Assembly (NCBI GenBank): GCA_040003165.1
Contig: JBDUDC010000001.1
Location: 1-54,638, forward strand
DNA from: Chloroflexota bacterium
Lineage (GTDB): Bacteria > Chloroflexota > Limnocylindria > QHBO01
Length of the DNA: 54,638 bases
Reading direction: 5' to 3'
In this document: piece after piece, positions 1 to 48,904 of the stretch
How positions within the stretch are numbered: the stretch's first letter is position 1
Layout: each line of letters starts with the position of its first letter
The notes under the pieces: generated by a model
The model's database searches: none
What the model was told of the DNA's origin: nothing
The model's input: only the letters and a program-made list of their open reading frames with translations
Translations under genes and position numbers: made by a program

Positions 1-566
1 AGGAAGAACTCGCGCGAGCCGACCGACGGGCCGATGCAGTCGTACAGCAGCGCAGAATCGGTCTGGTCCTTGAATCGCAGCTGGCTGAGGATGCTCGACC
101 GGCGCTTCCAGAGATTGTCCGGCTCGCTCCATGCGCGCATGACAGGCGCCACCTCGGCCGGGTGCGCGAGCAGGATCGGGCCGATTCGATCGCTGGCGAT
201 CTCGTCGACGTAGTCCCACCAGGCCCCGGTCACGACTAGCTCCTCGTAGAGCGGCAGCAGCTTTGGGGTCTGAAAGGCTCGCGCTCTTCGGTCACCGGCG
301 AGGATCAGGGCCGCGTACCGCTCCTCCCGGAAGCGTGCGCCGCGCCAGAGGCCCAGCACCTCGTCGCGCCACGCGGCGAGCGATGGCAGCGCAACCTCGC
401 CAAAGACCCTCCGGGCGACCGCCTTGAGCAGCGGGCTCGGCACGCCGTGGAACGGCATCGCCGACTTCATGTAACCCTGCATCCGCGGCGCCCTCTGTGG
501 GTCGGCGACGTTGGTCAGCTCGGCGCGGAGCTGCCGCAGGAGCGGTGTGCCGGGCGCAATCGCCAT
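1..566 (-). CDS. DNA alkylation repair protein (AlkD-like HEAT-repeat family), 3' end cut by window edge
   Basis: Not in the ORF track because it runs off the window. Hand translation of the minus strand from the ATG at 566 gives MAIAPGTPLLRQLRAELTNVADPQRAPRMQGYMKSAMPFHGV...TGAWWDYVDEIASD...NLWKRRSSILSQLRFKDQTDSALLYDCIGPSVGSREFF. High GC3; typical AlkD-family motifs. Confidence 0.75.
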   Translation of the reverse strand, partial: MAIAPGTPLLRQLRAELTNVADPQRAPRMQGYMKSAMPFHGVPSPLLKAVARRVFGEVALPSLAAWRDEVLGLWRGARFREERYAALILAGDRRARAFQTPKLLPLYEELVVTGAWWDYVDEIASDRIGPILLAHPAEVAPVMRAWSEPDNLWKRRSSILSQLRFKDQTDSALLYDCIGPSVGSREFF

Positions 567-3439: not shown

Positions 3440-4117
3440 ATGCACCAGATTCTGATCGTTGACGACGAGCCGAAGATCACGCGGCTCGTCGGCGATTACC
3501 TTACCGATGCCGGCTTCGCCGTGACGGTCGCACGCGATGGACGCGAGGCGCTGATGCGAGCGAGGACCGAGCGGCCCGACCTGATCGTGCTCGACCTCGG
3601 CCTGCCCGGCCTCGACGGGCTTGACGTCACGCGCGCCCTGCGGCGTGACGCCGGGGTGCCGATCATCATGCTCACCGCCCGCGCGGCCGAGGCTGATCGC
3701 GTTGTTGGGCTCGAGCTCGGCGCGGACGACTACGTGACCAAGCCGTTCAGCCCGCGGGAGCTGGTTGCGCGCGTCCGGGCCGTACTGCGGCGCCACGAGC
3801 TCAACGTCGGGAGCGAGCTGCTGCGGGCCGCGGATCTCACCCTCGACGTCCCGCGAATGCGGGTCGAGGCCGCCGGCCGGCGCATCGATCTCACGCCGAC
3901 CGAGTTCGCGCTCCTCGAGGCGCTCGCCCGACAGCCCGGCCGCGTCTTCACCCGCTCCCAGCTGCTCGACGCGATTCACGGCGTCGCATTCGAGTCCTAC
4001 GAGCGGGCCATCGACGCGCACGTGAAGAACATCCGACGCAAGCTGGAGTCGGATCCCCGTCGGCCGCGCTACCTGCTCACCGTCTACGGGGTCGGATATC
4101 GGCTTGCCGATGCCTGA
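3440..4117 (+). CDS. OmpR/PhoB-family DNA-binding response regulator
   Basis: Receiver domain (ILIVDDEP...DLIVLDLGLPGLDG...KPF) followed by a winged-helix output (LTPTEFALLEAL...YLLTVYGVGYRL). Confidence 0.92.
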   Translation: MHQILIVDDEPKITRLVGDYLTDAGFAVTVARDGREALMRARTERPDLIVLDLGLPGLDGLDVTRALRRDAGVPIIMLTARAAEADRVVGLELGADDYVTKPFSPRELVARVRAVLRRHELNVGSELLRAADLTLDVPRMRVEAAGRRIDLTPTEFALLEALARQPGRVFTRSQLLDAIHGVAFESYERAIDAHVKNIRRKLESDPRRPRYLLTVYGVGYRLADA

Positions 4118-5240
4118 GTGGCGCCGCGGCCCGCACGGTCGTCGAGGGCGGCCCCCGTGGTGGCCGGAGGGCGAATCGTGGCCCCCGCGCGGCCCCGCTG
4201 CGGCCGAGGGCTGGCGCCGGATGCGAGCGCGCATGTTCTGGCGCATCGGCTGCGCGCTGGCGTTCCTGGTTCTCCTGGGGGCGGCGGCGGGCACGCTCCT
4301 GGTCCTGGCGCTCTCGCGATCGTGGGTCGGGGGGCTTATTGCCGTTCTTGTGCTGATCGCCGCCTTCCTGGTGATCGGGTCGCTGCGACGTGCGGCGGGG
4401 CCCGTGGCGGACCTGGTAGCGGCCGCCGAGCGGGTTGAGGCAGGGGACTACTCCGGGCGGCTGGCCGAGCGCGGGCCCTGGGAGATCCGCTCGGTGACGC
4501 GCGCCTTCAATGCGATGAACGCCCGGCTGGAGGAGTCCAACGAGCAGCGCCGTCGCCTTCTTGCCGACCTGTCGCACGAGCTGCGCACGCCGCTCAGCGT
4601 GATCCAGGGCAACCTCGAAGGGCTGATCGACGGCGTCTACCCGGCCGATGCGGCTCACCTCGCCCCGATCCTCGAGGAGACGCACCTCCTCGAGCGCCTG
4701 ATCGAGGACCTGCGGACGCTGGCGCTGGCCGAGGCGGGCAGGCTGCGGCTGCGTCGCGAGCCCACTGATCTCGGGGCACTGCTGCAGGACATCGCCGCCG
4801 CGTTCGCCGCCCGGGCCGATGCGGCGGGAGTGGAGCTGGCGGTCGCGGCCTCGGGCGATTTGAGCTCGATCGAGCTCGACCCGACCCGCATTCACGAGGT
4901 GGTCGCCAACCTGCTCACCAACGCCCTGCGGCACACGCCGCGCGGCGGCCGGGTCGACATCACCGCGCGCGGAGACGCGGAGGGGGCTTCGGTCTCGGTC
5001 CGCGACAGCGGCAGCGGGATCGCGCCCGAGGCGCTGCCCCATGTCTTCGAACGCTTCTACCGAGCAAGCGACTCCGGCGGCAGCGGCCTGGGGCTGCCGA
5101 TCGCCCGGAGCCTGGTCGCCGCCCACGGCGGCGAGATGAGCGCGTCCAGCGCGCAGGGCGGGGGCACGACCATCGTATTCACGGTGCCTCGTGGATTGGC
5201 TGTGGACGAAGCGCCGACGGAGGCGGAAACTCGGGGATAA
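4104..5240 (+). CDS. Sensor histidine kinase (2 TM, HAMP, HisKA, HATPase_c)
   Basis: H-box LADLSHELRTPLS, N-box NLLTNALRHTP, and G-boxes DSGSGI and GSGLGL. Overlaps the RR stop (ATGCCTGA coupling). The last 16 codons and the stop codon lie inside repeat copy A. Confidence 0.9.
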   Translation: MPMPEWRRGPHGRRGRPPWWPEGESWPPRGPAAAEGWRRMRARMFWRIGCALAFLVLLGAAAGTLLVLALSRSWVGGLIAVLVLIAAFLVIGSLRRAAGPVADLVAAAERVEAGDYSGRLAERGPWEIRSVTRAFNAMNARLEESNEQRRRLLADLSHELRTPLSVIQGNLEGLIDGVYPADAAHLAPILEETHLLERLIEDLRTLALAEAGRLRLRREPTDLGALLQDIAAAFAARADAAGVELAVAASGDLSSIELDPTRIHEVVANLLTNALRHTPRGGRVDITARGDAEGASVSVRDSGSGIAPEALPHVFERFYRASDSGGSGLGLPIARSLVAAHGGEMSASSAQGGGTTIVFTVPRGLAVDEAPTEAETRG

Positions 5241-5398
5241 GGGGCCTTGTGGCCCGCGCACCCGGGGCATACATTGTTGGCGTCCCGAAGGGGCAGCGAA
5301 TACCGGTTCAGGAGATTGCATCAAGCGTTCCGGTACCGTTACGGTGGCTTCGGTCACCGCGTCGGGCGCCGTTCCTTCGGGGCATTGCCATGCCCGGC
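5191..5398 (+). repeat. Copy A of a ~200-nt hairpin-rich non-coding repeat element (possible MITE-like element or structured sRNA)
   Basis: Hand alignment to 15065-15273. The 105-nt core 5282-5386 has 6 mismatches, and the left arm 5191-5242 is about 41/52 identical. Contains UUCG tetraloop hairpins and shows no coding-type GC3. Confidence 0.7.
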
Positions 5399-15064: not shown

Positions 15065-15273
15065 GTGGGTTGGCTGTGGATGAAGCCACGAACGGCTCGC
15101 AAACTCGGGGATAAGTGGGATTGCCTCGGTCGTCAGTGCAAGCCTATTCTCTGGGTGTCCCGAAGGGGCAGCGAATACCGGTTCATGAGATTGCATCAAG
15201 CGTTCCGGTACCGTTTCGGTGGCTTCGGTCACCGGGCCGGACGCAGTTCCTTCGGGGCATTTCTTTGTCCATC
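15065..15273 (+). repeat. Copy B of the ~200-nt hairpin-rich non-coding repeat element
   Basis: Aligns with 5191-5398 (core 15157-15261). Fills almost the entire gap between two minus-strand genes. Confidence 0.7.
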
Positions 15274-15802
15274 ACGCGCGCTCGATTGCGACGCGCTCGA
15301 CCTCCTCGGACGAGCGAAGGAGATCGATCCGGGCGAAGCCTTCGGCGCCGAGCATCGGCTTCGATTCGGCCAGCCATCGCGCCTGTCGGCGGATCGCGGA
15401 TTCGGGAAGTGGATGCGTGAGGCGCAGCCGGTTGCGCTCGAGGCATGTCTCCAGGGGCAGGTCGAGGACGACCGCGATTGCGGGCCGCCGACCGTGGCGA
15501 CGGGCCGCGTCGAGGAGCAGGCGGCGCGCCCAGCGCTGGACGTTGGTGGCATCAACCACGGTCAGATGGCCCCGGGCGAGGCGCATGGCGAGCGCGATGC
15601 GCAGCAGCTCAAACGCGTCCTTGGTCGCGGATTGGTCAGCCCCGTCGCCGGCGATCAGGCCGCGCAGGGCGTCCGAGGAGAGCACGTCGGTTGGCCCGAA
15701 ATGGCGAGCAGCCAACGTCGATTTTCCCGAGCCGGAGATGCCGACCAGCATCACGAGGGCGTCTCCGGGGATGCGCAGCGGTATGAGTGGTGGCGGCTTC
15801 AT
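15272..15802 (-). CDS. P-loop kinase (AAA_33 / polynucleotide-kinase-like ATP-binding protein)
   Basis: Walker A GISGSGKST and Walker B-like VVDATN. Start at the ATG at 15802 (MKPPPL), or alternatively at 15838. Confidence 0.75.
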   Translation of the reverse strand: MKPPPLIPLRIPGDALVMLVGISGSGKSTLAARHFGPTDVLSSDALRGLIAGDGADQSATKDAFELLRIALAMRLARGHLTVVDATNVQRWARRLLLDAARRHGRRPAIAVVLDLPLETCLERNRLRLTHPLPESAIRRQARWLAESKPMLGAEGFARIDLLRSSEEVERVAIERA

Positions 15803-15816
15803 GGCCGTCAGCCGGG

Positions 15817-16005
15817 TCAGCCCTCGTTCGCGATGCACTCCGCGCAGAGCTCGGAGTCCGGGATCGGCGGGACGGGCGAGCCGGTGGCGCGGGGCAGGGT
15901 GCGGCCACAGACGGTCAGCTCCGGATCACGCATCAGGTGGACCTTGGAGAAGTGGCGATCCGGCAGGCGCCAGGTGACGTAGCGGCGGGTGGGCATCGTC
16001 TTCAT
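15817..16005 (-). CDS. Small hypothetical protein (62 aa)
   Basis: Internal ATG at 16005 (MKTMPTRRYVTWRLPDRHF...ELCAECIANEG). High GC3. No family recognised. Confidence 0.4.
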   Translation of the reverse strand: MKTMPTRRYVTWRLPDRHFSKVHLMRDPELTVCGRTLPRATGSPVPPIPDSELCAECIANEG

Positions 16006-16070
16006 ATCGGACCGCGAAGTATGCCCTAAATCGAGCTCCGGCACAACTCGGCCGTTCCGAATCTGGCAGC

Positions 16071-17267
16071 ATGAGGCGCTGTATGGCACTCGCGAGGCGG
16101 ATTGGCGTTCTGACCGGCGGCGGCGACGTGCCGGGGCTCAACTCGGTGATCAAGAGCGTTGTCTACCGATCCACCGAGCTCGGCTGTGAGGTCCTCGGCA
16201 TCCGGCGCGGCTGGCAGGGGCTCACCCATCTGCCGCCCGCAGACCAGCCGGATGGCGGCTACATCTGGCCGCTCGATCGGCGCAACACGCGGGCGATCGA
16301 TCGCACGGGCGGCACGGTCCTGCACACGTCGCGCACCAACCCGGCGCGGATGCCGCGGGCCGCGCTGCCGGATTCGATTGACCCACGCCGTTTGGCCACC
16401 ATGCAGACTGATGAGGACGTGTACGACCTCACGCCGCTCGTGCTCGAAAACCTCGAGCGCATGCGCATCGAGTCGCTGGTGGCGATCGGCGGCGACGACA
16501 CCCTCGGCTACGCACAGCGCCTCGGCGCCGAGGGGGTGCCCCTTGTCGCGATCCCCAAGACCATGGACAACGACGTGCAGGGCACCGAGTACTGCATCGG
16601 CTTCTCGACAGCGGTCACGCGCGCGAAGGAGCTGATCAACCGCCAGCGGACGACGCTCGGCTCGCACGAGCGGATCGGAGTCTTTCGCATCTTCGGCCGC
16701 AACTCGGGCTACACGGCGTGGTACTCGGCCTACGTGACCAGCGCGCGCTGCGTCATTCCGGAAGCCCCCTTCGACCTCGAGTCGCTGGCGGGCCTGCTCG
16801 CGGACGACCGACGCCTGAATCCGTCCGGCTACGCGTTCGTGATCGCCAGCGAGGGCGCCATCTGGACCGGCGGCCGCCTCGACGACGTGGGCGAGCCCGA
16901 TGCCTACGGCCACCGACACAAGGCCGATGTCGGCTACGCGCTCGCGCTCGAGCTGCGCGGCCGCACCGGAATCGAGACGGTCCACAGCGACCTCACCTAC
17001 GACCTGCGCTCCGGCGAGCCCGATGCCCTCGATCAGACGGTCGCGATCACCTTCGCGAACGTCGCGATGGACCTGCTCGCGTCGGGGGTGACCGGGCGCA
17101 TGGCCGCCATCCGCGAGGGGAAGTACGCCCACGCGCCGCTCCCCAATGCGTCCCTGGGGCCGCGGCAGCTGGACGTCGAGACGATGTACAACGCGGACCG
17201 ATTCCGTCCGCGCTACGAGGCCCGGCTGGGCTCGCCGCTCCTGCTCGGCCGCTCGGTGGGGGAGTGA
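16071..17267 (+). CDS. pfk: 6-phosphofructokinase (ATP- or PPi-dependent)
   Basis: RIGVLTGGGDVPGLN, IGGDDTL and PKTMDNDV motifs. The start may be the ATG at 16083. Confidence 0.9.
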   Translation: MRRCMALARRIGVLTGGGDVPGLNSVIKSVVYRSTELGCEVLGIRRGWQGLTHLPPADQPDGGYIWPLDRRNTRAIDRTGGTVLHTSRTNPARMPRAALPDSIDPRRLATMQTDEDVYDLTPLVLENLERMRIESLVAIGGDDTLGYAQRLGAEGVPLVAIPKTMDNDVQGTEYCIGFSTAVTRAKELINRQRTTLGSHERIGVFRIFGRNSGYTAWYSAYVTSARCVIPEAPFDLESLAGLLADDRRLNPSGYAFVIASEGAIWTGGRLDDVGEPDAYGHRHKADVGYALALELRGRTGIETVHSDLTYDLRSGEPDALDQTVAITFANVAMDLLASGVTGRMAAIREGKYAHAPLPNASLGPRQLDVETMYNADRFRPRYEARLGSPLLLGRSVGE

Positions 17268-25265: not shown

Positions 25266-25422
25266 AGCCTAGCGGGCGCAGCGCAACGGCCGCGTACCGC
25301 CCCTGTCGACTGACGCTGGTCCCAATGCGCTCGACAGTCCCGTCAGGAGAGGGAAGGGGCTCTCACCGAGCGCTTACGTGCTTGGCCGGCGCATCAGCCC
25401 CGCAACGGTGCGCAGCTGAACA

Positions 25423-25761
25423 TCACGCGCTCTCGGCGAGACCCGCCAGCTCGAATGCGAGCTCGAGCGCCTCGAGCGGACGGAACCCGACCGCAGCGCG
25501 CGGCGGCTCGCCGGGCTTGAAGTACGCGACGGTAGGGATGCTCATGATCCCGTACTTCATCGCGGTCTGCGGGTTGGCATCGACGTCCATCTTGACCACG
25601 TCGACCGATCCGGCGTACTTCTCCGCCAGCTTGTCGATCTCCGGGGCGACCAGGCGGCAGGGCCCGCACCACGTTGCCCAGAAGTCGACAACGGTCGGCT
25701 TGTCGTTCTGGAGCACGAGCTGATCAAAGGTGGCATCGGTCGCTTCGGTGACGTTCGACAT
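25423..25761 (-). CDS. trxA: Thioredoxin
   Basis: WATWCGPCR active site, 112 aa. RBS AGGAAGGA upstream. Confidence 0.93.
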   Translation of the reverse strand: MSNVTEATDATFDQLVLQNDKPTVVDFWATWCGPCRLVAPEIDKLAEKYAGSVDVVKMDVDANPQTAMKYGIMSIPTVAYFKPGEPPRAAVGFRPLEALELAFELAGLAESA

Positions 25762-25797
25762 CGGTATCGGTCCTTCCTGGAAAATGGATTTCGTGAT

Positions 25798-26091
25798 TTA
25801 TCGAGCAACCTGCTGCAGGAGCCGATAGATTTCGAGCACCTGCTGATCGGCAAGTCGGTAGAAGATCGTGTTTCCGTCGCGCCGCGAGGTGACGATCCCC
25901 GCCGTGCGCAGGATCGCCAGGTGCTGGCTCATGTTCGGGACCTGGCAGCCGACCTCGCGGGAGAGGTCACTCACCGAATGCTCCCCGTCTGCCAGCCGCT
26001 CAAGGACGCAGAGCCGTTTGGGGTCAGCGAGTGCGCGCGCGATGGCGGCGCTGCGCTCACGGTCTGTATCGGTGCTGGCTATGACGGGCAT
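25798..26091 (-). CDS. ArsR/SmtB-family metalloregulator-type transcriptional repressor
   Basis: 97 aa. LADPKRLCVLERLADGEHSVSDLSREVGCQVPNMSQHLAILRTAGIV winged HTH. Sits upstream of trxA on the same strand. Confidence 0.85.
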   Translation of the reverse strand: MPVIASTDTDRERSAAIARALADPKRLCVLERLADGEHSVSDLSREVGCQVPNMSQHLAILRTAGIVTSRRDGNTIFYRLADQQVLEIYRLLQQVAR

Positions 26092-26110
26092 GCGGGGATT
26101 GTCTCATCGT

Positions 26111-26126
26111 TTGCGCAATAACGCAA
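26111..26126. promoter_or_regulatory. Candidate operator: 8-bp palindrome TTGCGCAA plus adjacent CGCAA half-site
   Basis: Lies in the divergent arsR / zinc-ribbon intergenic region, about 20 nt upstream of the arsR ATG. The arms are short, so the evidence is weak. Confidence 0.2.
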
Positions 26127-26199
26127 GTAGAACGGAACGTGCCCCAGGGGGAAGAATTGCGACACACGAGTTGTCACGAGCCGTGCCGAGACTCGCGCC

Positions 26200-26355
26200 A
26201 TGACTGTTCTGCTCACCTGCCCCTGGTGCGACGACGAGGTCGCCTTCCTGGTGGACGAGGCCGACGACGAGATCGTCTGCACCGCCTGCAACACCCGGAT
26301 GGCCTTCGCGCCGGACCCCATCACCACGTTCGACCTGCTCTACCAGGCCGCCTGA
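26200..26355 (+). CDS. Small zinc-ribbon protein (51 aa)
   Basis: Below the track length cut-off, so hand translated: MTVLLTCPWCDDEVAFLVDEADDEIVCTACNTRMAFAPDPITTFDLLYQAA. CxxC...CxxC motif, high GC3. Confidence 0.45.
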   Translation: MTVLLTCPWCDDEVAFLVDEADDEIVCTACNTRMAFAPDPITTFDLLYQAA

Positions 26356-26362
26356 CACCACG

Positions 26363-26392
26363 CTGCCGAGCCGGCTGAGGCCGACTCGGCAG
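26363..26392. terminator. Bidirectional terminator-like hairpin between convergent genes
   Basis: CTGCCGAG-(14 nt)-CTCGGCAG, an 8-bp perfect stem. Confidence 0.35.
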
Positions 26393-26410
26393 GGAGGCCG
26401 CCGCCCGGAA

Positions 26411-26923
26411 TCAGGGCCGCTGGAGCGCTCGGGATGCGATGGTCCGCATGCCGCCGCGCAAGACGACGAGCGCGGCGAGGAGGAGCCCGGCGCCGACGGC
26501 GAGGATGAACGGCACGGCGGAGCCGCCGGCCTCGGGAGCCGCCGCTGCGGCCCGGACCTGAAGCGGCTCGAGGGCCGTCTGGACCTCCAGCTGGTCGGGC
26601 ATGGTGACTGACCATTGCCAGCTGCCTGAGGTCGGGAGGGTCACGTCGACCACCCAATGACCCGGCTTCCCCTCGGTGCGCGCCTTGTAGGCGAGTACCT
26701 GCCCGTCAGGGCCGATCGCGTTGACGATCACAGTTCCCTGGCCAACGGGGGTCCTGCCGTGCTGGAGGACCGTGAAGCCGACGGTGGTGGTCTGGCCGGC
26801 CACCGGCCCAGCCGTGGCCGGGTCCGGGGTGACCGTTGCCCAGCCGCCGGCCATCGCCGCTCCAGCGCTGAGGAGCAGCGCAGCCGACGCGATAGATGAT
26901 GCGAGAGTCACTCGCTGGCGCAT
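26411..26923 (-). CDS. Secreted protein with C-terminal TM anchor, paralog 1 (possible FixH/YtkA-like Ig fold)
   Basis: Signal peptide ...AGAAMA|GGWATV, a ~110-aa beta-rich domain (GHWVVDVTLPTSGSWQWSVTM), Ala/Pro linker, TM segment and basic tail. Paralogous to 27041..27577. Confidence 0.65.
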   Translation of the reverse strand: MRQRVTLASSIASAALLLSAGAAMAGGWATVTPDPATAGPVAGQTTTVGFTVLQHGRTPVGQGTVIVNAIGPDGQVLAYKARTEGKPGHWVVDVTLPTSGSWQWSVTMPDQLEVQTALEPLQVRAAAAAPEAGGSAVPFILAVGAGLLLAALVVLRGGMRTIASRALQRP

Positions 26924-26950
26924 GGTGTTTGCCTCTGCGGTATGTGCCTT

Positions 26951-26979
26951 ATCTACCCATCTCCCCGGGCATCGGTTCC
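26951..26979 (-). promoter_or_regulatory. ECF-type promoter GGAACC-N17-GTAGAT upstream of paralog 1
   Basis: Minus strand reads GGAACCgatgcccggggagatggGTAGAT, 27 nt upstream of the ATG at 26923. Same architecture as at 27611-27639 and 27652-27680. Confidence 0.5.
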
Positions 26980-27040
26980 ATCGCGGGGACCACTTCCGTT
27001 GACGGCGGGCCGGATCCCCGGCGCAGGCTTGAGCTCCGAG

Positions 27041-27577
27041 TCAGGAGCGTCCCAGCGCGCGCGAGGCGGCCGTTCGCAGGCTGCCGCGGAGCGCGATGCC
27101 GAATGCCGCCAGGAGCAGCGCCGCAAAGGCGGGAACCAGGATTGGCAGCGCGGAGCCGCCGCTGGTCGGGACGGGCGCGACTGCGGCGACCTGCAACGGC
27201 TGCAATGGCGTCGTCACCGGCAGCTGGTCCGGCATCGTGACTGCCCAGCTCCAGCGACCCGCCTTTGGCAGCGTCAGCTCGACGACCCAATGGCCGGCTG
27301 TTCCCTGAGCTCGCGCGGGGAATGAGAGGAGCTTGCCGTCCGGGCCGGTCGCTTCGACGATTACCTCTCCCTGGCTGATCGGGGCCGTGCCTCGCTGCAG
27401 AAGCGTGAAGCCGATGCTCACCGGGCCGCCGGCGGTTGGCTTCGGCACACCCGGATCGAGCTCGACGGTCGCCCAGCCGCCCGCCCCGACCGGGGGCTCT
27501 TTGGCCAGCGCCGCACCGGCGCCGAGCAGCAGGACGGCGGATGCGATCAGCGAGGCGAGCGAGAGACTCTGGCGCAT
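27041..27577 (-). CDS. Secreted protein with C-terminal TM anchor, paralog 2
   Basis: Start taken at the ATG at 27577 (MRQSLSLASLIASA..), by analogy with paralog 1 and the shared RBS context cgcagaggca. GGWATVELDP...GHWVVELTLPKAGRWSWAVTM. Confidence 0.65.
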   Translation of the reverse strand: MRQSLSLASLIASAVLLLGAGAALAKEPPVGAGGWATVELDPGVPKPTAGGPVSIGFTLLQRGTAPISQGEVIVEATGPDGKLLSFPARAQGTAGHWVVELTLPKAGRWSWAVTMPDQLPVTTPLQPLQVAAVAPVPTSGGSALPILVPAFAALLLAAFGIALRGSLRTAASRALGRS

Positions 27578-27610
27578 GATGGGATGCCTCTGCGATTGTT
27601 CCAACGTCCG

Positions 27611-27639
27611 ATCTACACCCCCGGCCGCCTGACGGTTCC
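27611..27639 (-). promoter_or_regulatory. ECF-type promoter GGAACC-N17-GTAGAT upstream of paralog 2
   Basis: Minus strand reads GGAACCgtcaggcggccgggggtGTAGAT, 33 nt upstream of the ATG at 27577. Confidence 0.5.
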
Positions 27640-27651
27640 GTCGCGGTGGCG

Positions 27652-27680
27652 GGAACCCGGTCGGTTCGGCAGGTGTATCG
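27652..27680 (+). promoter_or_regulatory. ECF-type (autoregulatory) promoter GGAACC-N17-GTATCG upstream of the sigma factor gene
   Basis: GGAACCcggtcggttcggcaggtGTATCG. Its -35 element is back-to-back with that of the paralog 2 promoter, 12 nt apart. Confidence 0.5.
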
Positions 27681-27704
27681 GGATCAGCTGGTGGAGGGCC
27701 GTCA

Positions 27705-28265
27705 CTGACCGATACGGAGCTGGTCGAGCGGGCGCGGAATGGGGATGTGCCCGCCTACGAGGAGCTGATGCGTCGCCATGAATCGCTCGCCTTCCGCACG
27801 GCGTATCTGATCGTCGCCGATGCAGACGAGGCGCGCGATGCCGCGCAGGACGGATTTCTGCGGGCGTATGCGGCGCTGGGCCGCTTTCGGGCGGGTGCCG
27901 AGTTCCGACCGTGGCTGCTCCGCATCGTCGCCAACGCAGCGCGGAATCGACGGCGCGGCCGGACGCGACGAGCGGGCCTCGCGCTGCGCGCCGCGGCGGA
28001 TCGACAGGACGATCTCGCAGCCCCTTCCCCGGAGGTTGCGGTGCTGGCCGCCGAGCGGCGGGCACTGCTGCTGGCAGCAATCGAGCGCCTCAGCCTGGAG
28101 GATCGCGACGTGATCGTGATGCGGTGGTTCGCGGAGCTGAACGAGGCCGAGATGGCGGCCGCCCTCGACTGCCCGCGTGGGACCGTCAAATCTCGTCTCT
28201 CGCGAGCCATGGCCCGCCTCCGCCATCAGCTGCCTGATCGCGAGCTGGAGGGTCCCCATGACTGA
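27705..28265 (+). CDS. ECF-family RNA polymerase sigma factor (probable CTG start)
   Basis: Region 2 (PAYEELMRRHESLAFRTAYLIVADADEARDAAQDGFLRAY) and region 4 (LSLEDRDVIVMRWFAELNEAEMAAALDCPRGTVKSRLSRA). The track start is the GTG at 27747. However, the in-frame upstream LTDTELVERARNGDV matches the usual ECF N-terminus, and GGAGG lies 7 nt before the CTG at 27705. Confidence 0.85.
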   Translation: MTDTELVERARNGDVPAYEELMRRHESLAFRTAYLIVADADEARDAAQDGFLRAYAALGRFRAGAEFRPWLLRIVANAARNRRRGRTRRAGLALRAAADRQDDLAAPSPEVAVLAAERRALLLAAIERLSLEDRDVIVMRWFAELNEAEMAAALDCPRGTVKSRLSRAMARLRHQLPDRELEGPHD

Positions 28266-29025
28266 GCCGTTCGACTCTGCCCTCGACCGCGAGCTGTCGC
28301 AGCTGGCCGCCGAGATCGCACTCCCTCCGACGCCATCCCTTGCACTGGCGGTGGGAGCCACACTGCGCCAACCGCCGGCGCCATCCCGAATCGGGCTTCG
28401 CCTCTCACGCGGTCTCGTACTCGCCATCGTCGCGACGTTGCTGCTGGTCGGGATTGCGGCGGCGATCGGCATCGCGATCGGCGGGATCCGATTCGTCACC
28501 GGTTCGGGCACCCCGCCGCCGCTGCCCGCCGGCGTGGCAGCGCAGCGCGGACTGGGGAGGCTGGTCACCCTCGACGAGGCTCGGTCCGCGGTCGCATTCA
28601 CGATCCGCCTCCCGAGCGACGCTGCCCTGTCCGAGCCGGATCATGTCTATCTCTCGGCGCTGGCGCCGATGGGCGGCCGGGTCGGGCTGGTCTACGGCGA
28701 CCGGCCAGGGTTCCCTGCCGATCCGAAGAGCGGCATTGGGTTGCTGATCACCGAGTTCCGCGCCGACATCGGCCCAGACAGCTTCGAGAAGCTCATTCAG
28801 AAGGGCGTGCGCGTGGACGGAGTGACCGTCAACGGGCAGCCGGGCTACTGGGTCGCCGGCGGGAACCACTTCTTTTACTACCGCAACGCGGACGGCAGGG
28901 TTGTGGACGAGACGATGCGGCTGGTCGGGGACACGCTGATCTGGGCAGAGGGCGGCCTCACGCTTCGCATCGAAGGAGCGCCCTCGCTCGCGGCCGCCAG
29001 GGAGCTGGCAGCCTCGCTCCATTGA
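28258..29025 (+). CDS. Single-pass membrane protein with DUF4367-like extracytoplasmic domain (putative anti-sigma factor)
   Basis: ATG at 28258 overlaps the sigma stop (ATGACTGA). Short cytoplasmic N-terminus, one TM (LVLAIVATLLLVGIAAAIGIAIGG), and a C-terminal domain ...VNGQPGYWVAGG.HFF.... No ZAS HxxxCxxC motif. Confidence 0.7.
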   Translation: MTEPFDSALDRELSQLAAEIALPPTPSLALAVGATLRQPPAPSRIGLRLSRGLVLAIVATLLLVGIAAAIGIAIGGIRFVTGSGTPPPLPAGVAAQRGLGRLVTLDEARSAVAFTIRLPSDAALSEPDHVYLSALAPMGGRVGLVYGDRPGFPADPKSGIGLLITEFRADIGPDSFEKLIQKGVRVDGVTVNGQPGYWVAGGNHFFYYRNADGRVVDETMRLVGDTLIWAEGGLTLRIEGAPSLAAARELAASLH

Positions 29026-33001: not shown

Positions 33002-33640
33002 CTAGTGCTGGAGGTCGATCACCAGCCGGTCGGGCTCGGTGAGCGTCGAGACCCGCAGGCAGCTCGCCCGCGAGAGCCCCGCATACCAGTTGCTGACCGC
33101 CTCGAAATCGCCGCCTTCGACCAGGTTGACGAGCACCGGGAAGGTAAGGGCGAAGTTGCGCGGGCCGCTGTAGCTCGAACCGCCGGTGCCGGTCATCTTG
33201 GTGGCGCCATGCAGCGTGATGCGCAGGAACGCGCTCCCCTGGACGGTCAGCGGCTGGCCGCTGGGGTCCTGCGTGAATGGGGGACTCGCGGTCTCAATGC
33301 TGTACTGCGGGACGCCGCCGCGGAACTGGAAGACGATGCGGTCGTAGCCGTCATGGGTGCCGACCCGCACGTCGCTGATGTTGGTGTGCGTGACGGTTCC
33401 GCTTCCCTCGACCGGCAGGCCGCAGGCGAATCCGGCCGCGCCGCTGGGCTCGACCGTGGGAAGCGAGGTCGCTGACGGAGATGGACTGGTCGAGGTCGCA
33501 GAGGGGGAGGGCTCCTCGGAGGCGCTGACGCTCGTGATGACCGGCGACGCCGGGCCGCCGCCGGTCCGGGTCACCGCGCACGCTGCCAGCAGCAGCGTCA
33601 GGCTCAGGATGGCGGTTCGGGTCGCGAGAGTGGGCGGCAT
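33002..33640 (-). CDS. AMIN-like domain lipoprotein
   Basis: ATG at 33640 preceded by GAGGAG. Lipobox LLLAACA, Ser/Pro linker, YDRIVFQFRGGVPQYSIE...LRITLHGA. The remaining upstream part of track ORF 33002..34744 is a shadow of citrate synthase. Confidence 0.65.
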   Translation of the reverse strand: MPPTLATRTAILSLTLLLAACAVTRTGGGPASPVITSVSASEEPSPSATSTSPSPSATSLPTVEPSGAAGFACGLPVEGSGTVTHTNISDVRVGTHDGYDRIVFQFRGGVPQYSIETASPPFTQDPSGQPLTVQGSAFLRITLHGATKMTGTGGSSYSGPRNFALTFPVLVNLVEGGDFEAVSNWYAGLSRASCLRVSTLTEPDRLVIDLQH

Positions 33641-33721
33641 CTGGCTCCTCTTTGCCGGTTGATCCGGCGCGTTGCAATGATTTGCCCCTCTGACGGGCGG
33701 CGGGTGGGCTGCGTTACGGCC

Positions 33722-33727
33722 TAGACT
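33722..33727 (+). promoter_or_regulatory. -10-like box TAGACT, 9 nt upstream of the citrate synthase ATG
   Basis: ccTAGACTctcgcgacgATG. No Shine-Dalgarno sequence. Confidence 0.3.
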
Positions 33728-33736
33728 CTCGCGACG

Positions 33737-34828
33737 ATGAGCGAACGACCCTACTCGCCAGGCCTCGAAGGGGTCATCGCCGGCGAAACGTCGCTGGCGC
33801 TGATCGACGGGGCCGATGGCCGGCTGCTCTACCGCGGCTATCCGATCGGCGAGCTCGCCCAAAGTGGCAGTTACGCGCAGGTCTGCGAGCTGCTGTGGGG
33901 AGGTGAGTGGCCATCGCAGGCGAGCCTGTCCGTCGCTCGGCTCCCCGAGGAGGTGACCGCCGTGCTGCGGCTCCTCCCGGCCGGCACGAACGCGATGGAC
34001 GCGCTGCGCACGGCGGTCTCGACCTGGGGAGCGTGCGAGCGGCTTGGCTGGCCGCCGACCGTCGAACAGGCACGCCAGCTCACCGCTATGGCGCCTTCGG
34101 CGCTGGCGGCATTCGCTCGCCTGCGCGACGGTCTCGAGCCGATCGAGCCGGACCCCGATCTGCCCCTCGCCGCGGGCTTCCTCTACCAGCTGCGCGGTGA
34201 GCGACCGGACGAGTCGGCCGCGCGGGCGCTGGATGCGTACTTCGTCGTCGCGGCCGAGCATGGCTTCAACGCCTCGACCTTCACCGCGCGCGTCATCACC
34301 GCCACGCGCTCGGATCTCGCCAGCGCGGTGGTCGGCGCGATCGGTGCCCTCAAAGGGCCGCTCCACGGCGGGGCGCCATCCGAGGTCGTGAACCAGCTGC
34401 ACGAGATGGGCTCGGTCGAGGGAGCGGAAGCCTGGATGCGAGCCGCGCTTGCTCGCGGCGAGCGTCTGATGGGGTTCGGCCACCGCGTCTACCGCGCCTA
34501 CGATCCGAGGGCCGCCGCGCTGCGCACGGTCGCCGAGCGCCTGACCGATGTCGCCGGCTGGCTCGAGATGGCGGTCCGCGTCGAGGAGGTCGCCCTGCGC
34601 CTGCTGGCCGAGGAGAAGCCGGGCCGCGTCATCAAGACCAACGTCGAGTACTACGCCGCGGCCGTGCTGCAGGGCGTTGGGCTGGCGCCGAACCTCTTCC
34701 CGGCCACCTTCGCGCTGGCGCGCCATGCTGGCTGGACGGCGCACTGCCTTGAGCAGGCGGCCGCGAATCGGCTGATTCGGCCCGATGTGCGTTACGTGGG
34801 ACCGCCGGAGCGCTCGCTTCCCGACTGA
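33737..34828 (+). CDS. Citrate synthase (short, type-I-like / methylcitrate synthase family)
   Basis: [37 protein letters not shown] motifs. Confidence 0.9.
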
Positions 34829-36117
34829 CCTCCCACGGGGCCGATCTCCTCGCCGAGGCGCTCCGCGAGGAGGCGCCGCTCGGCAGGGTTCTCGGTCAGG
34901 GAAAGGGCGCGGCGATCCGCCTCACGCGATTCCTCCGCCCGCCCGAGGCGACGCAGGAGCTCGCCGCGGGCGGCGTGGAACAGGTGGTAGCCGTCGAGGC
35001 GTGAGGCGAGCGGCTCGATCTCCGCCAGCGCGGGCGCCGGCCCGTCGCGCTCGGCCAGCGCCAGGGCCCGGTTGAGGGCGACGACCGGCGAGGGCAGCAT
35101 CTCGAGCAGCTGGTCGTAGAGCGCCACGATCGCCGTCCAGTCGGTGGCCGCGTACGAAGGCGCCTGGGCGTGGACGCCGACGATCGCCGCCTGGAGCTGG
35201 TACGGGCCGGCGCGGTCCATCCGGCCTGCGCGCCGGACGAGCGCGAGGGCGTCGTTGATGGCAGGCCGCGTCCAGAGGGAGCGATCCTGGTCGGGGAGCA
35301 GGATGAGCGAGCCGTCGCTGGCGAACCGCGCCGCCGCGCGGGCCAGGTGCAGCCGCATGAGCGCGAGCAGGCCGATCGCCTCCGGCTCGTCCGGCATCAG
35401 CCGCACCAGCAGCGAGGCGAGCCACTCGGCGTCGGCGGCCAGCTCGCGGCGCTCTGCCGACTGACCGGCGGAGGCGAGATATCCCTCGTTGAAGATGAGA
35501 TAGAGCACGCTCAGCACCTCGGTCAGCCGGCCGGGCAGCTCCGAGGCGTCGGGGACGCGATAAGGGATCGCGGCGTCGCGGATCTTACGCTTGGCGCGGA
35601 CCAGCCGCTGCGCGATGGTGGCCTCCGAGACCAGGAAGGCGCGCGCCACCGCCGGCGTCTCTAGGCCCCCGATCGTGCGCAACGTGAGCGCCACCTGGGC
35701 CTCCCGCGAGAGCGCGGGGTGGCAGCAGGTGAAGATCAGGCGCAGCCGGTCATCGGCCGCCATCGGCCCGCCGGTCTCGATCGGTGTCTCCATCGCCGTC
35801 GCCTCCAAGCCGAGCTGAGCGAGGCGGTCGCGATAGCGGGCGTTCCGCCGCAGTCGGTCGACGGCCCGCCGACGAGCGGTGGTCATCAGCCACGCCCCGG
35901 GGTTCCGGGGGATCCCCTCGCCGGGCCAGTGCTCGAGCGCTGCGACGAGCGCGTCCTGGACGAGCTCCTCGGCGAGGTCCCAGTCCCCGAGGATGCGGAC
36001 CAGCGCTGCGGTGAGCCTGCCGCGCTCCTCGCGCACGACGAGCTCGAGACGCGGATCCACCGCCTTGCGCGTCACCGGCCCATCGGATCGCTCATTGCTC
36101 TGTTCACCTCTGCTCAT
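34792..36117 (-). CDS. ECF-like sigma-70 factor with long C-terminal extension (DUF6596-like)
   Basis: Region 2 ([19 protein letters not shown]...[20 protein letters not shown]), region 4 ([30 protein letters not shown]), then about 230 aa of helical extension. Its 3' end overlaps citrate synthase by 37 nt. Confidence 0.85.
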
Positions 36118-39184: not shown

Positions 39185-39514
39185 ATGACTGCGGCGTATG
39201 ATCGTGCGCCCATGGCCACCAACGAACGAGCTGCCCTCGCCTTCGGAACGGGCATCTCCGACGACCACGACGACGGGATCCGCTGGGTCGACTACACGAA
39301 CATCAGCTGGAACCCGGTCTTCTGCAAGCGCTGCGACATCTGCGTCGACATCTGCCCCAAGCAGACCCTCGTGCTGCGCAACGACGCGATCATCGAGGAG
39401 GAGAACTGCATCCTGTGCGGCCTCTGCGAGCGCTACTGCCCCGACCTCGCGATCGAGATGATCCCGTCTGCCGTTCGCGCGCATGCCGCCGGGGCCACGG
39501 GCGCCGGCGAGTAG
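39185..39514 (+). CDS. korD: 2-oxoacid:ferredoxin oxidoreductase delta subunit (2x[4Fe-4S] ferredoxin domain)
   Basis: CKRCDICVDICP and CILCGLCERYCP cluster motifs. The alternative start ATG at 39212 lies 9 nt after a TATGAT box (39197-39202). Confidence 0.8.
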   Translation: MTAAYDRAPMATNERAALAFGTGISDDHDDGIRWVDYTNISWNPVFCKRCDICVDICPKQTLVLRNDAIIEEENCILCGLCERYCPDLAIEMIPSAVRAHAAGATGAGE

Positions 39515-39518
39515 GCCG

Positions 39519-40655
39519 ATGCGGAAGCTGAGCCAGGGGAACGAGGCGATCTTTCGCGGTGCGCTGGCCGCCGGAGCCAGCTACTACGCGGGCTATCCGA
39601 TCAGCCCCTCGACCGAGATCCTGAACGTGGCATCGGGCTGGGCGGCCGAGCATCCGGAGTTCCGCTTCCTGCAGGCCGAGGACGAGATCGCCTCCGCGAA
39701 CGCCGTGATCGGGGCAAGCCTGGCGGGCGCGAAGGCGTTCACGGCCACCAGCGGGCCGGGCTTCAGCCTCATGCAGGAGGCGATCGGCTACGCCCAGAAG
39801 GTGGGCGTGCCCTCGGTCTTCGTCAACGTGCAGCGGGTCGGGCCGGCGACCGGGATGCCCACCATGCCGGGCCAGGGCGACGTGATGCAGGTTCGCTACG
39901 GCAGCACCGGCGACTACACACCCATCGCCTTCTACCCGAATGGCGTGGCCGAGTCATTCCAGATCGCGGTCGAGGCGTTCAACGCCGCCGAGGAGTCGCA
40001 GTCGCCGGTTGTCGTCCTGTCGGACACCTTTGTCGCGCACCTCAACGAGGTGGTCGACCTCGACGAGCTGGCGGAGTCGCTCGAGATCGTCCCGCGCGCG
40101 CTCGCTCCGCTCGGACGCCACGATCCGGGAGAGCCACGCTTCTTCGCCGGCGTGCTGATGTACGAGCACGGGCCGAACGCTGGCGAGCCGGCCACCGCCG
40201 ATGCGGACGAGTACCTGCGCCAGTACTACGAGGCCAAGAATCGCCACATGGAGGTCGCGGCCCGCCACGCGCGCTTCGAGCACGGCTGGAACGTCGATGC
40301 GCCGGTCCTGATCGTCTGCTACGGGATCGTTTCGCGCGTAGCCGCGCCGCTCCGCGACGAGTACGCCCTCTTCCGGCCGATTCGCATCCACCCGATCCTC
40401 GGCGACGAGCTGCGCGCGGTCGCCGACCGCTACGAGCAGATCGTGGTGATCGAGGCCAACGATGGCCAGTACGCCGACATGGTCGAGCTTGCAGTCCACC
40501 GCGAGGTCAAGCGCGTGCCGCTGCTGGGCGGCCGCATCTCCCTCGAGGCGGTACGAGACGGGCTCGAGCGGGTGCTGGGCGGCGGCCCGTCCGAGCCCCC
40601 GGTGCCGCCCGCGCCCACCGAGCGCGCCGCGCCGTCCCCGCTGGGAATCGGCTGA
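39519..40655 (+). CDS. korA: 2-oxoacid:ferredoxin oxidoreductase alpha subunit
   Basis: MRKLSQGNEAIFRGALAAGASYYAGYPISPSTEI... is a typical KorA/PorA N-terminus. Confidence 0.9.
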   Translation: MRKLSQGNEAIFRGALAAGASYYAGYPISPSTEILNVASGWAAEHPEFRFLQAEDEIASANAVIGASLAGAKAFTATSGPGFSLMQEAIGYAQKVGVPSVFVNVQRVGPATGMPTMPGQGDVMQVRYGSTGDYTPIAFYPNGVAESFQIAVEAFNAAEESQSPVVVLSDTFVAHLNEVVDLDELAESLEIVPRALAPLGRHDPGEPRFFAGVLMYEHGPNAGEPATADADEYLRQYYEAKNRHMEVAARHARFEHGWNVDAPVLIVCYGIVSRVAAPLRDEYALFRPIRIHPILGDELRAVADRYEQIVVIEANDGQYADMVELAVHREVKRVPLLGGRISLEAVRDGLERVLGGGPSEPPVPPAPTERAAPSPLGIG

Positions 40656-41911
40656 TGCCTGAAGCGCCGATGGCCGAGATGGCCTTCAAGAAGCACCTGA
40701 AGACCGACCTTTTCCCGACGATCTGGTGCCCGGGATGCGGGATCGGCACGATCATGATCATGCTCGCCATGGTCCTGGACGAGATGGGCCTGGACGAGAC
40801 GAACACGATCATCGTGACGGGGATCGGCTGCACCGGGCGGATGGGCAGCTACATGAAGTACGAGAGCGTCTACACCCTGCACGGCCGGACGCTGCCAGTG
40901 GCCGAGGCGATCAAGGCGGTGCGCCCGGAGATGCACGTCATCGTGGTCGCCGGCGACGGCGACACGGCCAGCATCGGCGGCAACCACTTGATCCACTCGA
41001 TCCGGCGCAATGCGCGCGTTACGGTGCTCTGCAACAACAACGAGATCTACGGGCTGACCGGCGGCCAGACCGGTCCCACCACCCCCACCGGCACGAAGAC
41101 CCTGTCGAGCCCCGGCGGCAATCCGAACACGCCCATAAACCTCCAGGCGATCGTCCGCTCGTCGCCGCACGCGGTCTATGCCAAGACGACGGTCTACCAC
41201 CAGCTCCACATGCGCAACGTGATCCGCGATGCGATCGAGCACGACGGCTTCAGCCTGGTCGACATTACGAGCCAGTGCATCGAGAACAACGGACGCAGGA
41301 TCGGCTTCGCATCGGCCAACGAGATGCTCAGCTTCTATCGCAAGACCTACAAGCGCGCCGGCAAAGGGGCCACCAGCCTGAACCCATTCGAGATCGGGAT
41401 CCTATATCCAACGACCGATGCCGCCGCCTCGAATGGCCATGCCACGGCCGCCGAGCCCGAGCGTCCGTCCGCACTACCGGAGCAACCTGCCGGACCGATG
41501 ACATCCGCCACCGCGTCGCCCGGAGCTGCCGCCGCCAGCGACGACACCCGCGCGCTGCGCCGCGCGGAGTCGCAGCAGCGCGCCGCGCTGATGGGGCAGC
41601 TCGACCGGGAGACGAAGCTGCGCGTGGCGAAGGGCGATCTCACGCTGGCCGAGGCGTTCGCCCAGGCTGGGCTCGAGATGCCCGAGTCGCTGCGCACCGG
41701 GGCGAGTGCGCCGCAGGCCGCGCCGGCGCCGGCCAGTGCGCCGGCCGTGGCGTCGCCGGATGCCAAAGAGGCACGCCGAGCCGAGGCCCAGCGCAAGCTC
41801 GCGCTCATGCAGCGGCTCCCGTCTGAGCTGAAGCTGCGCGTCGCCAAGCGCGAGATCACCCTGGAGGAGGCGCTCGGCGAGGCGGGGATCGAGCCGGACG
41901 GGTCAGGCTGA
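40655..41911 (+). CDS. korB: 2-oxoacid:ferredoxin oxidoreductase beta subunit (TPP-binding) with atypical C-terminal repeat extension
   Basis: WCPGCGIG, GIGC, GDGD..SIGGNH, NNNEIYGLTGGQ. About 150 extra C-terminal residues contain a tandem ~40-aa repeat. Confidence 0.9.
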   Translation: MPEAPMAEMAFKKHLKTDLFPTIWCPGCGIGTIMIMLAMVLDEMGLDETNTIIVTGIGCTGRMGSYMKYESVYTLHGRTLPVAEAIKAVRPEMHVIVVAGDGDTASIGGNHLIHSIRRNARVTVLCNNNEIYGLTGGQTGPTTPTGTKTLSSPGGNPNTPINLQAIVRSSPHAVYAKTTVYHQLHMRNVIRDAIEHDGFSLVDITSQCIENNGRRIGFASANEMLSFYRKTYKRAGKGATSLNPFEIGILYPTTDAAASNGHATAAEPERPSALPEQPAGPMTSATASPGAAAASDDTRALRRAESQQRAALMGQLDRETKLRVAKGDLTLAEAFAQAGLEMPESLRTGASAPQAAPAPASAPAVASPDAKEARRAEAQRKLALMQRLPSELKLRVAKREITLEEALGEAGIEPDGSG

Positions 41912-48644: not shown

Positions 48645-48659
48645 TGCGCATCTTCTAAC

Positions 48660-48699
48660 GTGCTGTCCAGTCGCTCGCTGCCCCAATGTGCTGTCCAGT
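48660..48699 (+). promoter_or_regulatory. Direct repeat GTGCTGTCCAGT x2 (candidate regulator binding sites)
   Basis: Identical 12-mers at 48660-48671 and 48688-48699, each preceded by AAC or AAT. A partial inverted GGACAG sits at 48710-48715. All lie in a 260-nt lower-GC intergenic region. Confidence 0.3.
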
Positions 48700-48891
48700 G
48701 ACGTAGCGCGGACAGATCGCCACTAATGCGCCGCGGAGTTCCATTGACCTGCCCAAGGGCCAGTTAATGCACTACGGGGTCCCGTTGGGCTGCCAGCGGA
48801 CCTGATCGGCGCAGCGAACGGGGCTGGTGGGAGCATTGGCCGCGCTCGTCGGAATCGAGATCGCCCGGACCGAAGCGCGGATGCCAGTCGC

Positions 48892-48897: not shown

Positions 48898-48904
48898 CGG
48901 CCAC

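Follow-up and report, generated by a model that had tools for sequence, protein, structure and literature searches.

Two repeats in a Limnocylindria contig as probable genes of an undescribed family of structured small RNAs

The stretch of DNA considered here, hereafter the window, comprises 54,638 nucleotides of contig JBDUDC010000001.1 from a Chloroflexota bacterium of the Limnocylindria (assembly GCA_040003165.1), and it contains a non-coding repeat in two copies, A and B, which lie 9.9 kb apart in the same orientation. These repeats are probably two paralogous genes of one new family of structured small RNAs (sRNAs), each furnished with a predicted promoter and terminator of its own. On the balance of the comparative evidence, each copy would be a gene complete in itself and transcribed on its own, specifying a structured RNA of ~102-112 nt from a family that has not been described. 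The analysis establishes the repeat, the family to which it belongs, the fold and its strand, a conserved upstream architecture and the synteny of the loci, whereas the start of transcription, its termination at the U-tract and the function are inferred.

An earlier sequence-only reading of the window had recognized the pair as a single hairpin-rich element of ~200 nt, and its alignment counts prove exact on recount: the upstream block 5191-5242 agrees with 15065-15116 at 41 of 52 positions, the core 5282-5386 departs from 15157-15261 at only 6 of 105 nt, and the ~40 nt between these blocks indeed do not align between the copies. A repeat search of the window recovers both blocks as direct repeats, i.e., 5279-5395/15154-15270 (117 nt, 91% identity), which is the longest direct-repeat family among those found, and 5191-5249/15065-15123 (59 nt, 78%), which is among the longer ones. 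The core had also been described as poorer in GC than its surroundings, and this holds against the average of the window (0.70, as compared with 0.63-0.65 in the RNA). A covariance model built from the structure of the family (R1) detects copy B with 102 bits (E 1.3e-19) and copy A, over its full length, with 98.9 bits (E 5.6e-19), both on the + strand, and finds no third copy across the 54.6-kb window. With the model scoring at exactly two places, the repeat pair is far beyond chance. What does not survive is the unit itself: the first ~90 bp of the supposed 200-nt element appear to be promoter DNA, and the RNA is predicted to span ~102 nt plus a U-rich tail.

Relatives of the two copies were collected by two pattern searches. 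The first, which used 20 nt of the P2 loop (see below) against one genome per species, matched 21 contigs, each belonging to a different assembly; these are Chloroflexota/Candidatus Limnocylindria metagenome-assembled genomes (MAGs) save one labelled Methylomirabilota. The second, a metagenome scan requiring the two strands of the closing helix P1 alone, matched at least 120 contigs. Pooled with the window, these yield at least 144 occurrences and at least 111 distinct cores of 100-107 nt, together with one 109-nt member and a 120-nt false positive. Among the matches listed, family members occur solely in Chloroflexota/Limnocylindria assemblies and uncharacterized soil contigs. The contig with the Candidatus Methylomirabilota label (L021, DATJIJ010000104.1) carries the RNA within the arrestin-like/kinase/SRAP gene order that is seen in the Limnocylindria MAGs, and is probably mis-binned. 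Viral contigs provided no match to the family, and a phage origin was set aside on that ground. The core lengths represent every residue class modulo 3, which argues that there is no conserved reading frame and that the unit is not coding.

Each fetched locus carries one or two copies. One soil contig (L072) encodes two UUCG-tipped paralogs 4.5 kb apart at 12-115 (-) and 4557-4662 (-), close to genes for a pyruvate kinase and an alpha/beta hydrolase, indicating that some lineages carry further paralogs outside the canonical locus. Additionally, in L026, L062, L072, L083, L095, L114 and L130 the contig starts or stops within ~15 nt of the RNA, and these ends look like assembly breakpoints at a sequence common to paralogs or strains.

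The predicted RNA is Y-shaped, a three-way junction comprised of a closing helix (P1), a short extension of it (P1b) and two arms (P2 and P3). Single-sequence folds of the + strand give the same Y shape for both copies, with free energies of -56.6 kcal/mol for copy A (z = -2.1) and -57.0 for copy B (z = -4.8). P1 is a 13-bp helix in which GUCCCGAAGGGGC pairs with GUUCCUUCGGGRY, including two fixed G-U pairs; P1b adds 3 bp, all three of which covary; P2 is an irregular arm with the tip motif GAGAUUGCAUCAA; and P3, an arm of 13 bp, changes freely in sequence without loss of pairing and covaries at 12 of 13 pairs. The string of short hairpins proposed earlier for this region is replaced by a three-way junction closed by the 13-bp helix, although some of its parts find a place in the new fold. 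Thus, ACCGG...CCGGU corresponds to the base of P2 and GGUGGC-UUCG-GUCACC to the tip of P3, whereas GUCCC-GAA-GGGGC and CC-UUCG-GG pair with each other to form the long-range P1, which had been missed, and ACCG-UUA-CGGU is not a hairpin but the 5' strand of P3.

Covariation supports this structure. In the R1 alignment, which comprises 100 distinct sense sequences, standard pairs fill 90% of the cells at paired positions and 24 of the 42 pairs show changes on both sides, with the double changes in P2 being due to the ~20 members in which this arm is capped by UUCG. The double-change cells number 287 as against 92±11 in column shuffles, a value that none of 500 shuffles reaches, and pairing with slid partners gives at most 54. 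A MAFFT alignment agrees (19 pairs; 234 cells versus 90±12). These compensatory changes prove selection on RNA pairing, and the conservation that had earlier been assigned to the DNA or RNA level is thereby placed at the level of the RNA. P1, by contrast with its neighbors, never covaries. Each of its strands is a quasi-palindrome, and the duplex consequently has a pseudo-dyad. The sense of the RNA had been correctly called as the + strand: the two copies score 102 and 98.9 bits on it versus 27 and 25 on the opposite one, and the abundance of G-U pairs in the sense alignment supports the same strand, as do the last two columns of P1, whose variation runs towards wobble pairs. An RNA from the minus strand was rejected on account of its weaker folds and these lower scores (25-27 versus 99-102 bits).

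Upstream of the fold, 116 distinct regions anchored on the first base of P1 align with zero gaps. The family-wide pattern consists of three boxes, G(G/T)GGA at -92..-88, GTGGA at -81..-77 and AAA-N-TCGGGGATAA at -56..-43, followed by TTG at -36..-34 (94-98%), 18 nt of free sequence (17 in copy A) and T-A-T-n-C-T at -12..-7, in which A-11 is conserved in 96% and T-7 in 100% of the regions. The first base of GTCCCG falls 7 nt past the -10 hexamer. This geometry is suggestive of a sigma-70-type promoter with an activator-like upstream region. The boxes are spaced by 11 and 31 bp, which places all three on one helical face, and such phased boxes look like an activator site on direct repeats. In copy B they stand exactly at the consensus -92, -81 and -56..-43 relative to 15157. 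The AAASTCGGGGATAA pattern occurs in the window solely at the two copies (0.07 expected). Hence, the middle that failed to align between the copies can be understood as a core promoter with its free spacer, and the first conserved block as putative promoter DNA. Transcription would begin at the G of GTCCCG (5282/15157, + strand), giving an RNA of ~102 nt plus its U-rich tail.

At the other end, the 3' tail has the family consensus AUUUCGUUG; where the background is 15% T, 109 of 124 distinct tails contain 4-6 T within 9 nt. P1 followed by AUUUCGUUG would serve as an intrinsic terminator. A terminator scan calls copy B terminator-like and does not call copy A. The features of both copies are collected in the table.

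Coordinates of the predicted features of the two RNA genes and of their immediate neighbors in the window
Feature	Position	Strand	Remarks
Copy A RNA, 102 nt	5282-5383	+	Model R1, minimum-free-energy fold, pair counts
Copy A helices	P1 5282-5294/5371-5383; P1b 5296-5298/5367-5369	+	
Copy A arms	P2 5303-5333; P3 5336-5365	+	GAGAUUGCAUCAA tip 5312-5324; UUCG loop 5349-5352
Copy A upstream promoter region (predicted)	5191-5240	+	Boxes GTGGA 5191-5195, GTGGA 5202-5206 (11 bp later), AAACTCGGGGATAA 5227-5240
Copy A core promoter (predicted)	5247-5275	+	-35 TTGTGG 5247-5252, 17-nt spacer, -10 TACATT 5270-5275
Copy A 3' tail	5384-5392	+	AUUGCCAUG; U-tract weaker than in most members
Copy B RNA, 102 nt	15157-15258	+	Canonical locus; model R1, minimum-free-energy fold
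Copy B helices	P1 15157-15169/15246-15258; P1b 15171-15173/15242-15244	+	
Copy B arms	P2 15178-15208; P3 15211-15240	+	
Copy B upstream promoter region (predicted)	15065-15114	+	Boxes GTGGG 15065-15069, GTGGA 15076-15080, AAACTCGGGGATAA 15101-15114
Copy B core promoter (predicted)	15121-15150	+	-35 TTGCCT 15121-15126, 18-nt spacer, -10 TATTCT 15145-15150
Copy B U-rich tail	15259-15268	+	AUUUCUUUGU; terminator-like site 15246-15258 plus ATTTCTTTGT
OmpR-type response regulator (3440-4117) and histidine kinase (4104-5240)	3440-5240	+	Pfam, including HisKA/HATPase_c; directly upstream of copy A
Convergent stand-alone P-loop kinase beside copy B	15272-15838	-	Pfam AAA_33, E 6.5e-28

Certain observations weigh against the reading as sRNA genes. 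The start and end of both RNAs, and indeed their transcription, are read from sequence, and a simple sigma-70 consensus scan passes over both window copies; at copy B, 8 of the 12 consensus positions agree, one fewer than the scan threshold demands. Since the scan is negative at both copies, the promoter assignment draws on the comparative evidence. The invariance of P1 is in part ascertained, as the second scan demanded this helix; P1 is invariant too in the 23 loop-only sequences, save for A7G in L017, which gives G-U, and for wobbles at the last two 3' positions, and these last two columns, which lie outside both search patterns, show wobble changes as their sole variation in 109 of 111 sequences. 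Further, ~20 members do not have the conserved tip, implying that it is not essential for every paralog, and in 41 loci a gene lies 32-82 nt downstream on the same strand, where the RNA could act as a leader.

Copy B lies in a neighborhood that most loci share. Among 112 loci with at least 600 nt of downstream sequence, an AAA_33 kinase gene lies downstream of the RNA and convergent to it in 101, at a median gap of 48 nt. The kinase beside copy B aligns over its full length with the structures 4GP6/4GP7/4JST/4MDE (E 4.5e-38) and over positions 3-168 of TIGR04075 (bacter_Pnkp; E 8.8e-49), by which it is recognized as a homolog of the Pnkp kinase domain, Pnkp being an RNA-repair enzyme; with respect to the RNA it is taken here as genomic context. 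A homolog search with it gave a best 120 matches that are all at least 57% identical. Behind the kinase, a SRAP gene is found in 67 loci, and the gene divergent from the RNA on its upstream side codes for a TfoX_N protein in 46 loci and a SnoaL-like protein in 15. An Arrestin_N/Spo0M-like gene is encoded between RNA and kinase on the strand of the RNA, 32-82 nt past P1, in the 41 loci mentioned above. This shared arrangement identifies copy B, from its sequence context, as the canonical and seemingly ancestral locus.

Some details of these loci deserve separate mention. In many relatives the SRAP gene overlaps the kinase gene by 4 nt in an operon-like manner, and in the window a Cys-rich open reading frame (ORF) of 90 aa with no Pfam match (15817-16089, -) precedes the kinase where relatives have SRAP. 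The arrestin-like protein is ~300 aa long (e.g., L011 607-1537); its gene is absent from the window and present as remnants in L004 and L089, and it seems to have undergone repeated loss from loci that retain the RNA.

Copy A has a different setting, directly downstream of the two-component system given in the table. The order response regulator-histidine kinase-RNA recurs in L082 and L118, and L017, L087 and L045 align at ~80% with this region of the window. Both window copies have orthologs in relatives, with flanks that are 79-82% identical and RNAs that are 88-96% identical, and the A-type and B-type copies each retain their own diagnostic bases in P3 across these relatives (L082/L118/L017/L087/L045). 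As the arrangement is common to the relatives, copy A is best regarded as an old, retained, lineage-specific paralog, a judgment that likewise draws on comparative sequence. The last 16 codons and the TAA of the histidine-kinase ORF at 4104-5240 (tail ...PRGLAVDEAPTEAETRG*) are encoded by the promoter boxes of copy A, with the stop codon falling within the GGGGATAA box. The same overlap between the 3' end of the histidine kinase and the sRNA promoter boxes is shared by L082 and L118, and relatives keep a similar kinase tail (RGLAVDE...ETRG*), which apparently reflects the promoter constraint. The adjacent response regulator was considered as a controller of the boxes, an idea left unsupported by the absence of GTGGA-N6-GTGGA upstream of its own response regulator-histidine kinase operon; matches to this motif in the window show no excess over chance.

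The conserved tip behaves as a portable module. In most members it consists of G-A and A-A mismatches followed by GAU/AUC around UGC, that is, a G-C-closed 7-nt loop AUUGCAU. In ~20 members, P2 is instead a regular helix with a UUCG cap in place of GAGAUUGCAUCAA. In L033, L046, L053, L061, L065 and L125, GAGAUUGCAUCAA tips P2 and P3 alike, and in L052 it tips P3 only. Nearly all conserved bases of the RNA sit in helices, and P1 is invariant in sequence whereas the neighboring helices covary. An invariant, pseudo-palindromic P1 duplex suits a dimeric protein. Taken together, the helical location of the conserved bases, the invariance of P1, its pseudo-dyad and the portable tip fit a protein-binding RNA better than an antisense regulator. 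With modest confidence, then, the likeliest function suggested by these sequence features is that of a trans-acting protein-binding RNA, which would act as a stable scaffold or decoy and not via long antisense pairing. A more specific version, to which we give little credence, would make it the RNA subunit of an as yet unseen Limnocylindria ribonucleoprotein, with a dimeric protein on P1, the anticodon-loop-shaped AUUGCAU hairpin as bait or sensor, and a tie to the Pnkp-like kinase.

The principal alternatives concern what such an RNA would act upon. It could be a base-pairing trans sRNA, in which the exposed, U-turn-like 7-nt loop AUUGCAU of P2 (of P3 in some members) serves as the seed for mRNAs with UGAUGCAAU-like sites and the rest as scaffold and terminator. 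The predicted promoter and terminator resemble those of classical sRNAs, and GAUUGCAUCAA is the most conserved sequence outside P1 and is duplicated in some members; however, the seed would measure at most 7 nt, very few conserved bases are single-stranded, ~20 members bear an inert UUCG-capped helix at the tip, and sites complementary to the GAGAUUGCAUCAA tip are no commoner than expected by chance, either in the window or across 0.69 Mb of related loci. On these grounds we consider base pairing unlikely. The neighborhood suggests that the RNA might instead be a substrate mimic, sensor or scaffold in an end-healing or repair module with the Pnkp-like kinase and, in many loci, SRAP and the arrestin/Spo0M-like protein. 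This would be loosely analogous to Y RNAs, which are encoded next to rsr/rtcB, and is consistent with the frequency and closeness of the convergent kinase, with the full-length homology of the latter to the kinase domain of Clostridium thermocellum Pnkp, and with the ~100-nt length and long end-to-end helix of the RNA. Yet the kinase gene is convergent and thus not in an operon with the RNA, the arrestin-like gene intervenes in 41 loci, paralogs such as copy A are far from any such kinase, and, among the matches listed, the family occurs only in Chloroflexota/Limnocylindria assemblies and uncharacterized soil contigs, such that the adjacency may be inherited synteny. Moreover, Rfam, which is assumed to include the Y RNA models, gives no match, the fold lacks a bulged helix of the Ro-binding kind, and rsr is not among the neighboring genes. 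The functional tie between RNA and kinase is therefore an attractive but unproven lead, and the module as such seems quite improbable to us.

Still more doubtful is a cis-acting 5' leader or attenuator, in which P1 and the U-tract would form a regulated terminator with read-through into the arrestin/Spo0M-like gene. The 41 loci with this gene just past P1 invite such a view, and the remnants in L004 and L089 suggest that the arrangement was ancestral. Against this, ~60% of the canonical loci and all paralogs, including both window copies, are without a same-strand downstream gene, and a closing helix of 13+3 bp is far too stable to switch. A riboswitch or cis leader was rejected as a general account because of the limitation of such genes to 41 of the 112 loci and to neither window copy, as was an alternative 3' hairpin between GGGAC and the downstream GUCCC as a switch, which shows no covariation (A-C 49 versus A-U 40).

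Of the three explanations first offered for the repeat, a small structured sRNA family stands, whereas a MITE/REP-like repeat (i.e., a miniature inverted-repeat transposable element or repetitive extragenic palindrome) and the remnant of an insertion sequence (IS) end fall, there being two copies in the window, both at syntenic sites. A DNA-level or selfish element of these kinds, or a pair of palindromic operators, could account for two direct copies 9.9 kb apart and for the quasi-palindromic strands of P1; it is scarcely credible in view of the compensatory changes, which prove selection on RNA pairing. None of the 21 inverted-repeat pairs of the window (minimum 30 nt) falls in either unit, no transposase-like gene is present among the scanned ORFs, the two copies in 54.6 kb each occupy a conserved syntenic site with ordinary genes in between, and the P1 palindrome shows no enrichment in the rest of the window. 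The individual candidates were rejected accordingly: for a MITE/REP repeat, the ends of the unit are a promoter box and a U-tract with no inverted-repeat pair, the copies number two in the window and one or two per fetched locus, the neighbors are conserved in 101 of 112 loci, and both window sites are orthologous in relatives; for an IS remnant or transposon guide RNA (TnpB, IscB, IS110), no such gene exists among the 40 ORFs; for an island bounded by direct repeats, the intervening genes are ordinary and both sites syntenic in relatives; and for P1 strands as operator palindromes used elsewhere, there is no enrichment in the window.

The remainder of the window is consistent with an ordinary chromosome. 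A Pfam scan of 40 ORFs, covering most of it, recovered housekeeping, regulatory and transport families only, including MMPL, GNAT, MsrA, a GAF histidine kinase and an S9 peptidase between the two copies, and ProRS, PFK, PFOR, enoyl-CoA hydratases and others elsewhere. The absence of mobile-element genes claimed previously is borne out, with no transposase, integrase, reverse transcriptase, TnpB-like, IscB or recombinase gene among these 40 ORFs. Outside the RNA loci, three enoyl-CoA hydratase paralogs (ECH_1) followed by a 3-hydroxyacyl-CoA dehydrogenase occupy 45852-49690, where a gene for a double-GNAT acetyltransferase (47700-48641) separates the second ECH_1 from the third; these paralogs explain the repeat families D2 and D6. 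A 105-nt direct repeat (41584-41688/41800-41904; 71% identical, 216 nt apart) lies at the 3' end of the gene for the thiamine-pyrophosphate-binding subunit in a pyruvate:ferredoxin oxidoreductase-like cluster (39483-42531), after which comes a 632-aa ORF (42535-44430, +) with a strong GC bias at third codon positions and no Pfam match. Four consecutive ORFs at 25325-28601 are likewise without a Pfam match, and an extracytoplasmic function (ECF)-type sigma factor fused to DUF6596 (34795-36117, -) adjoins an AMIN-like-domain protein (33005-34744).

As a clean, covariation-backed family absent from Rfam, this RNA would merit a new entry in that database, and it provides a ready marker and model for annotation, being met in very many soil metagenome contigs. 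To our knowledge, the Candidatus Limnocylindria have few or no cultured members and almost nothing is known of their regulatory RNAs; a literature text search for the sequences or for RNAs of the clade found nothing. Three features are unusual for bacterial sRNAs, namely an invariant palindromic closing helix that would double as terminator, a hairpin tip that shifts from arm to arm, and a putative promoter with three phased boxes and no indel, and these speak for a specific protein partner as well as a dedicated regulator. The persistent adjacency to a stand-alone Pnkp-type kinase furnishes a lead to RNA or DNA end-healing biology. Were the ribonucleoprotein version correct, it would constitute a Y-RNA-like nucleic-acid damage or repair module of independent origin in the Chloroflexota.

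Comparison with known RNAs agrees with the earlier reading, which could not place the repeat in a known family. Rfam 15 gives no match anywhere in the window at gathering thresholds and, for the two copies at E<=10, only two chance-level matches, JUMPstart, which is outside the RNA, and p27_CRE, which is on the antisense strand. At the same threshold, eight divergent loci match no family save L044, the only real match, which is Acido-Lenti-1 (see below). There is a resemblance to the bacterial Y RNAs (YrlA/Yrn1), stand-alone RNAs of ~100 nt whose ends form a long sequence-conserved helix, whose interior is modular and whose genes lie beside that of an RNA-repair-type enzyme. The hallmarks of Y RNAs are a bulged Ro (Rsr)-binding helix, a tRNA-like module and adjacency to rsr. 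In contrast, P1 of the window RNAs is uninterrupted and devoid of a bulged Ro site, there is no T-arm/D-arm module, and the copies have no sense-strand match in Rfam at E<=10, where the Y RNA models are assumed to be included. No TROVE/rsr or rtcB gene is found among the Pfam-scanned ORFs of the window. Identity with a bacterial Y RNA was rejected on account of the uninterrupted P1, the want of an Rfam match and the absence of a TROVE protein among the scanned ORFs. Similarly, 5S rRNA and other Y-shaped junction RNAs share a size of 100-120 nt, a helix I formed from both ends and two arms; unlike 5S rRNA, the window RNAs do not match RF00001, are not in an rRNA operon and have unrelated loop and junction sequences. 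The outer 8 bp of P1 (GTCCCGAA ... TTCGGGrC; 5282-5289/5376-5383 and 15157-15164/15251-15258) also resemble the two half-sites of the mycobacterial DosR box (TTSGGGACTWWAGTCCCSAA), here in reversed order and separated by ~90 bp; the likeness is probably a coincidence.

Acido-Lenti-1 (RF01687) is an orphan sRNA candidate of soil bacteria, defined as a 46-nt two-hairpin motif with a local and covarying 3' hairpin (Weinberg et al. 2010, PMC2864571). This hairpin, GUNCCUUCGGNACU, resembles the 3' strand of P1; the likeness is restricted to one short hairpin, and the window copies do not match the model and differ in taxa and architecture. Locus L044, caught by the P1 pattern, is a true Acido-Lenti-1 (38.3 bits) with no match to model R1. 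In it (3989-4109, -), a further long hairpin (GUCCCGGAGGGGCGGUGGAA...UUCCGCCGUCCCUUCAGGAC) precedes the 46-nt Rfam motif, and the Acido-Lenti-1 family may hence be longer than its Rfam model. Generic trans sRNA genes, for their part, share with the predicted anatomy of the window loci an activator-type upstream region, -35 and -10 elements and a short transcript ending in a stem and U-tract, and they too occur as paralogs within one genome; they differ in that the window RNA is wholly enclosed by its putative terminator helix, exposes no obvious single-stranded seed and has a closing helix of invariant sequence. The two copies are best filed as bacterial structured sRNA genes, of a family that is itself undescribed.

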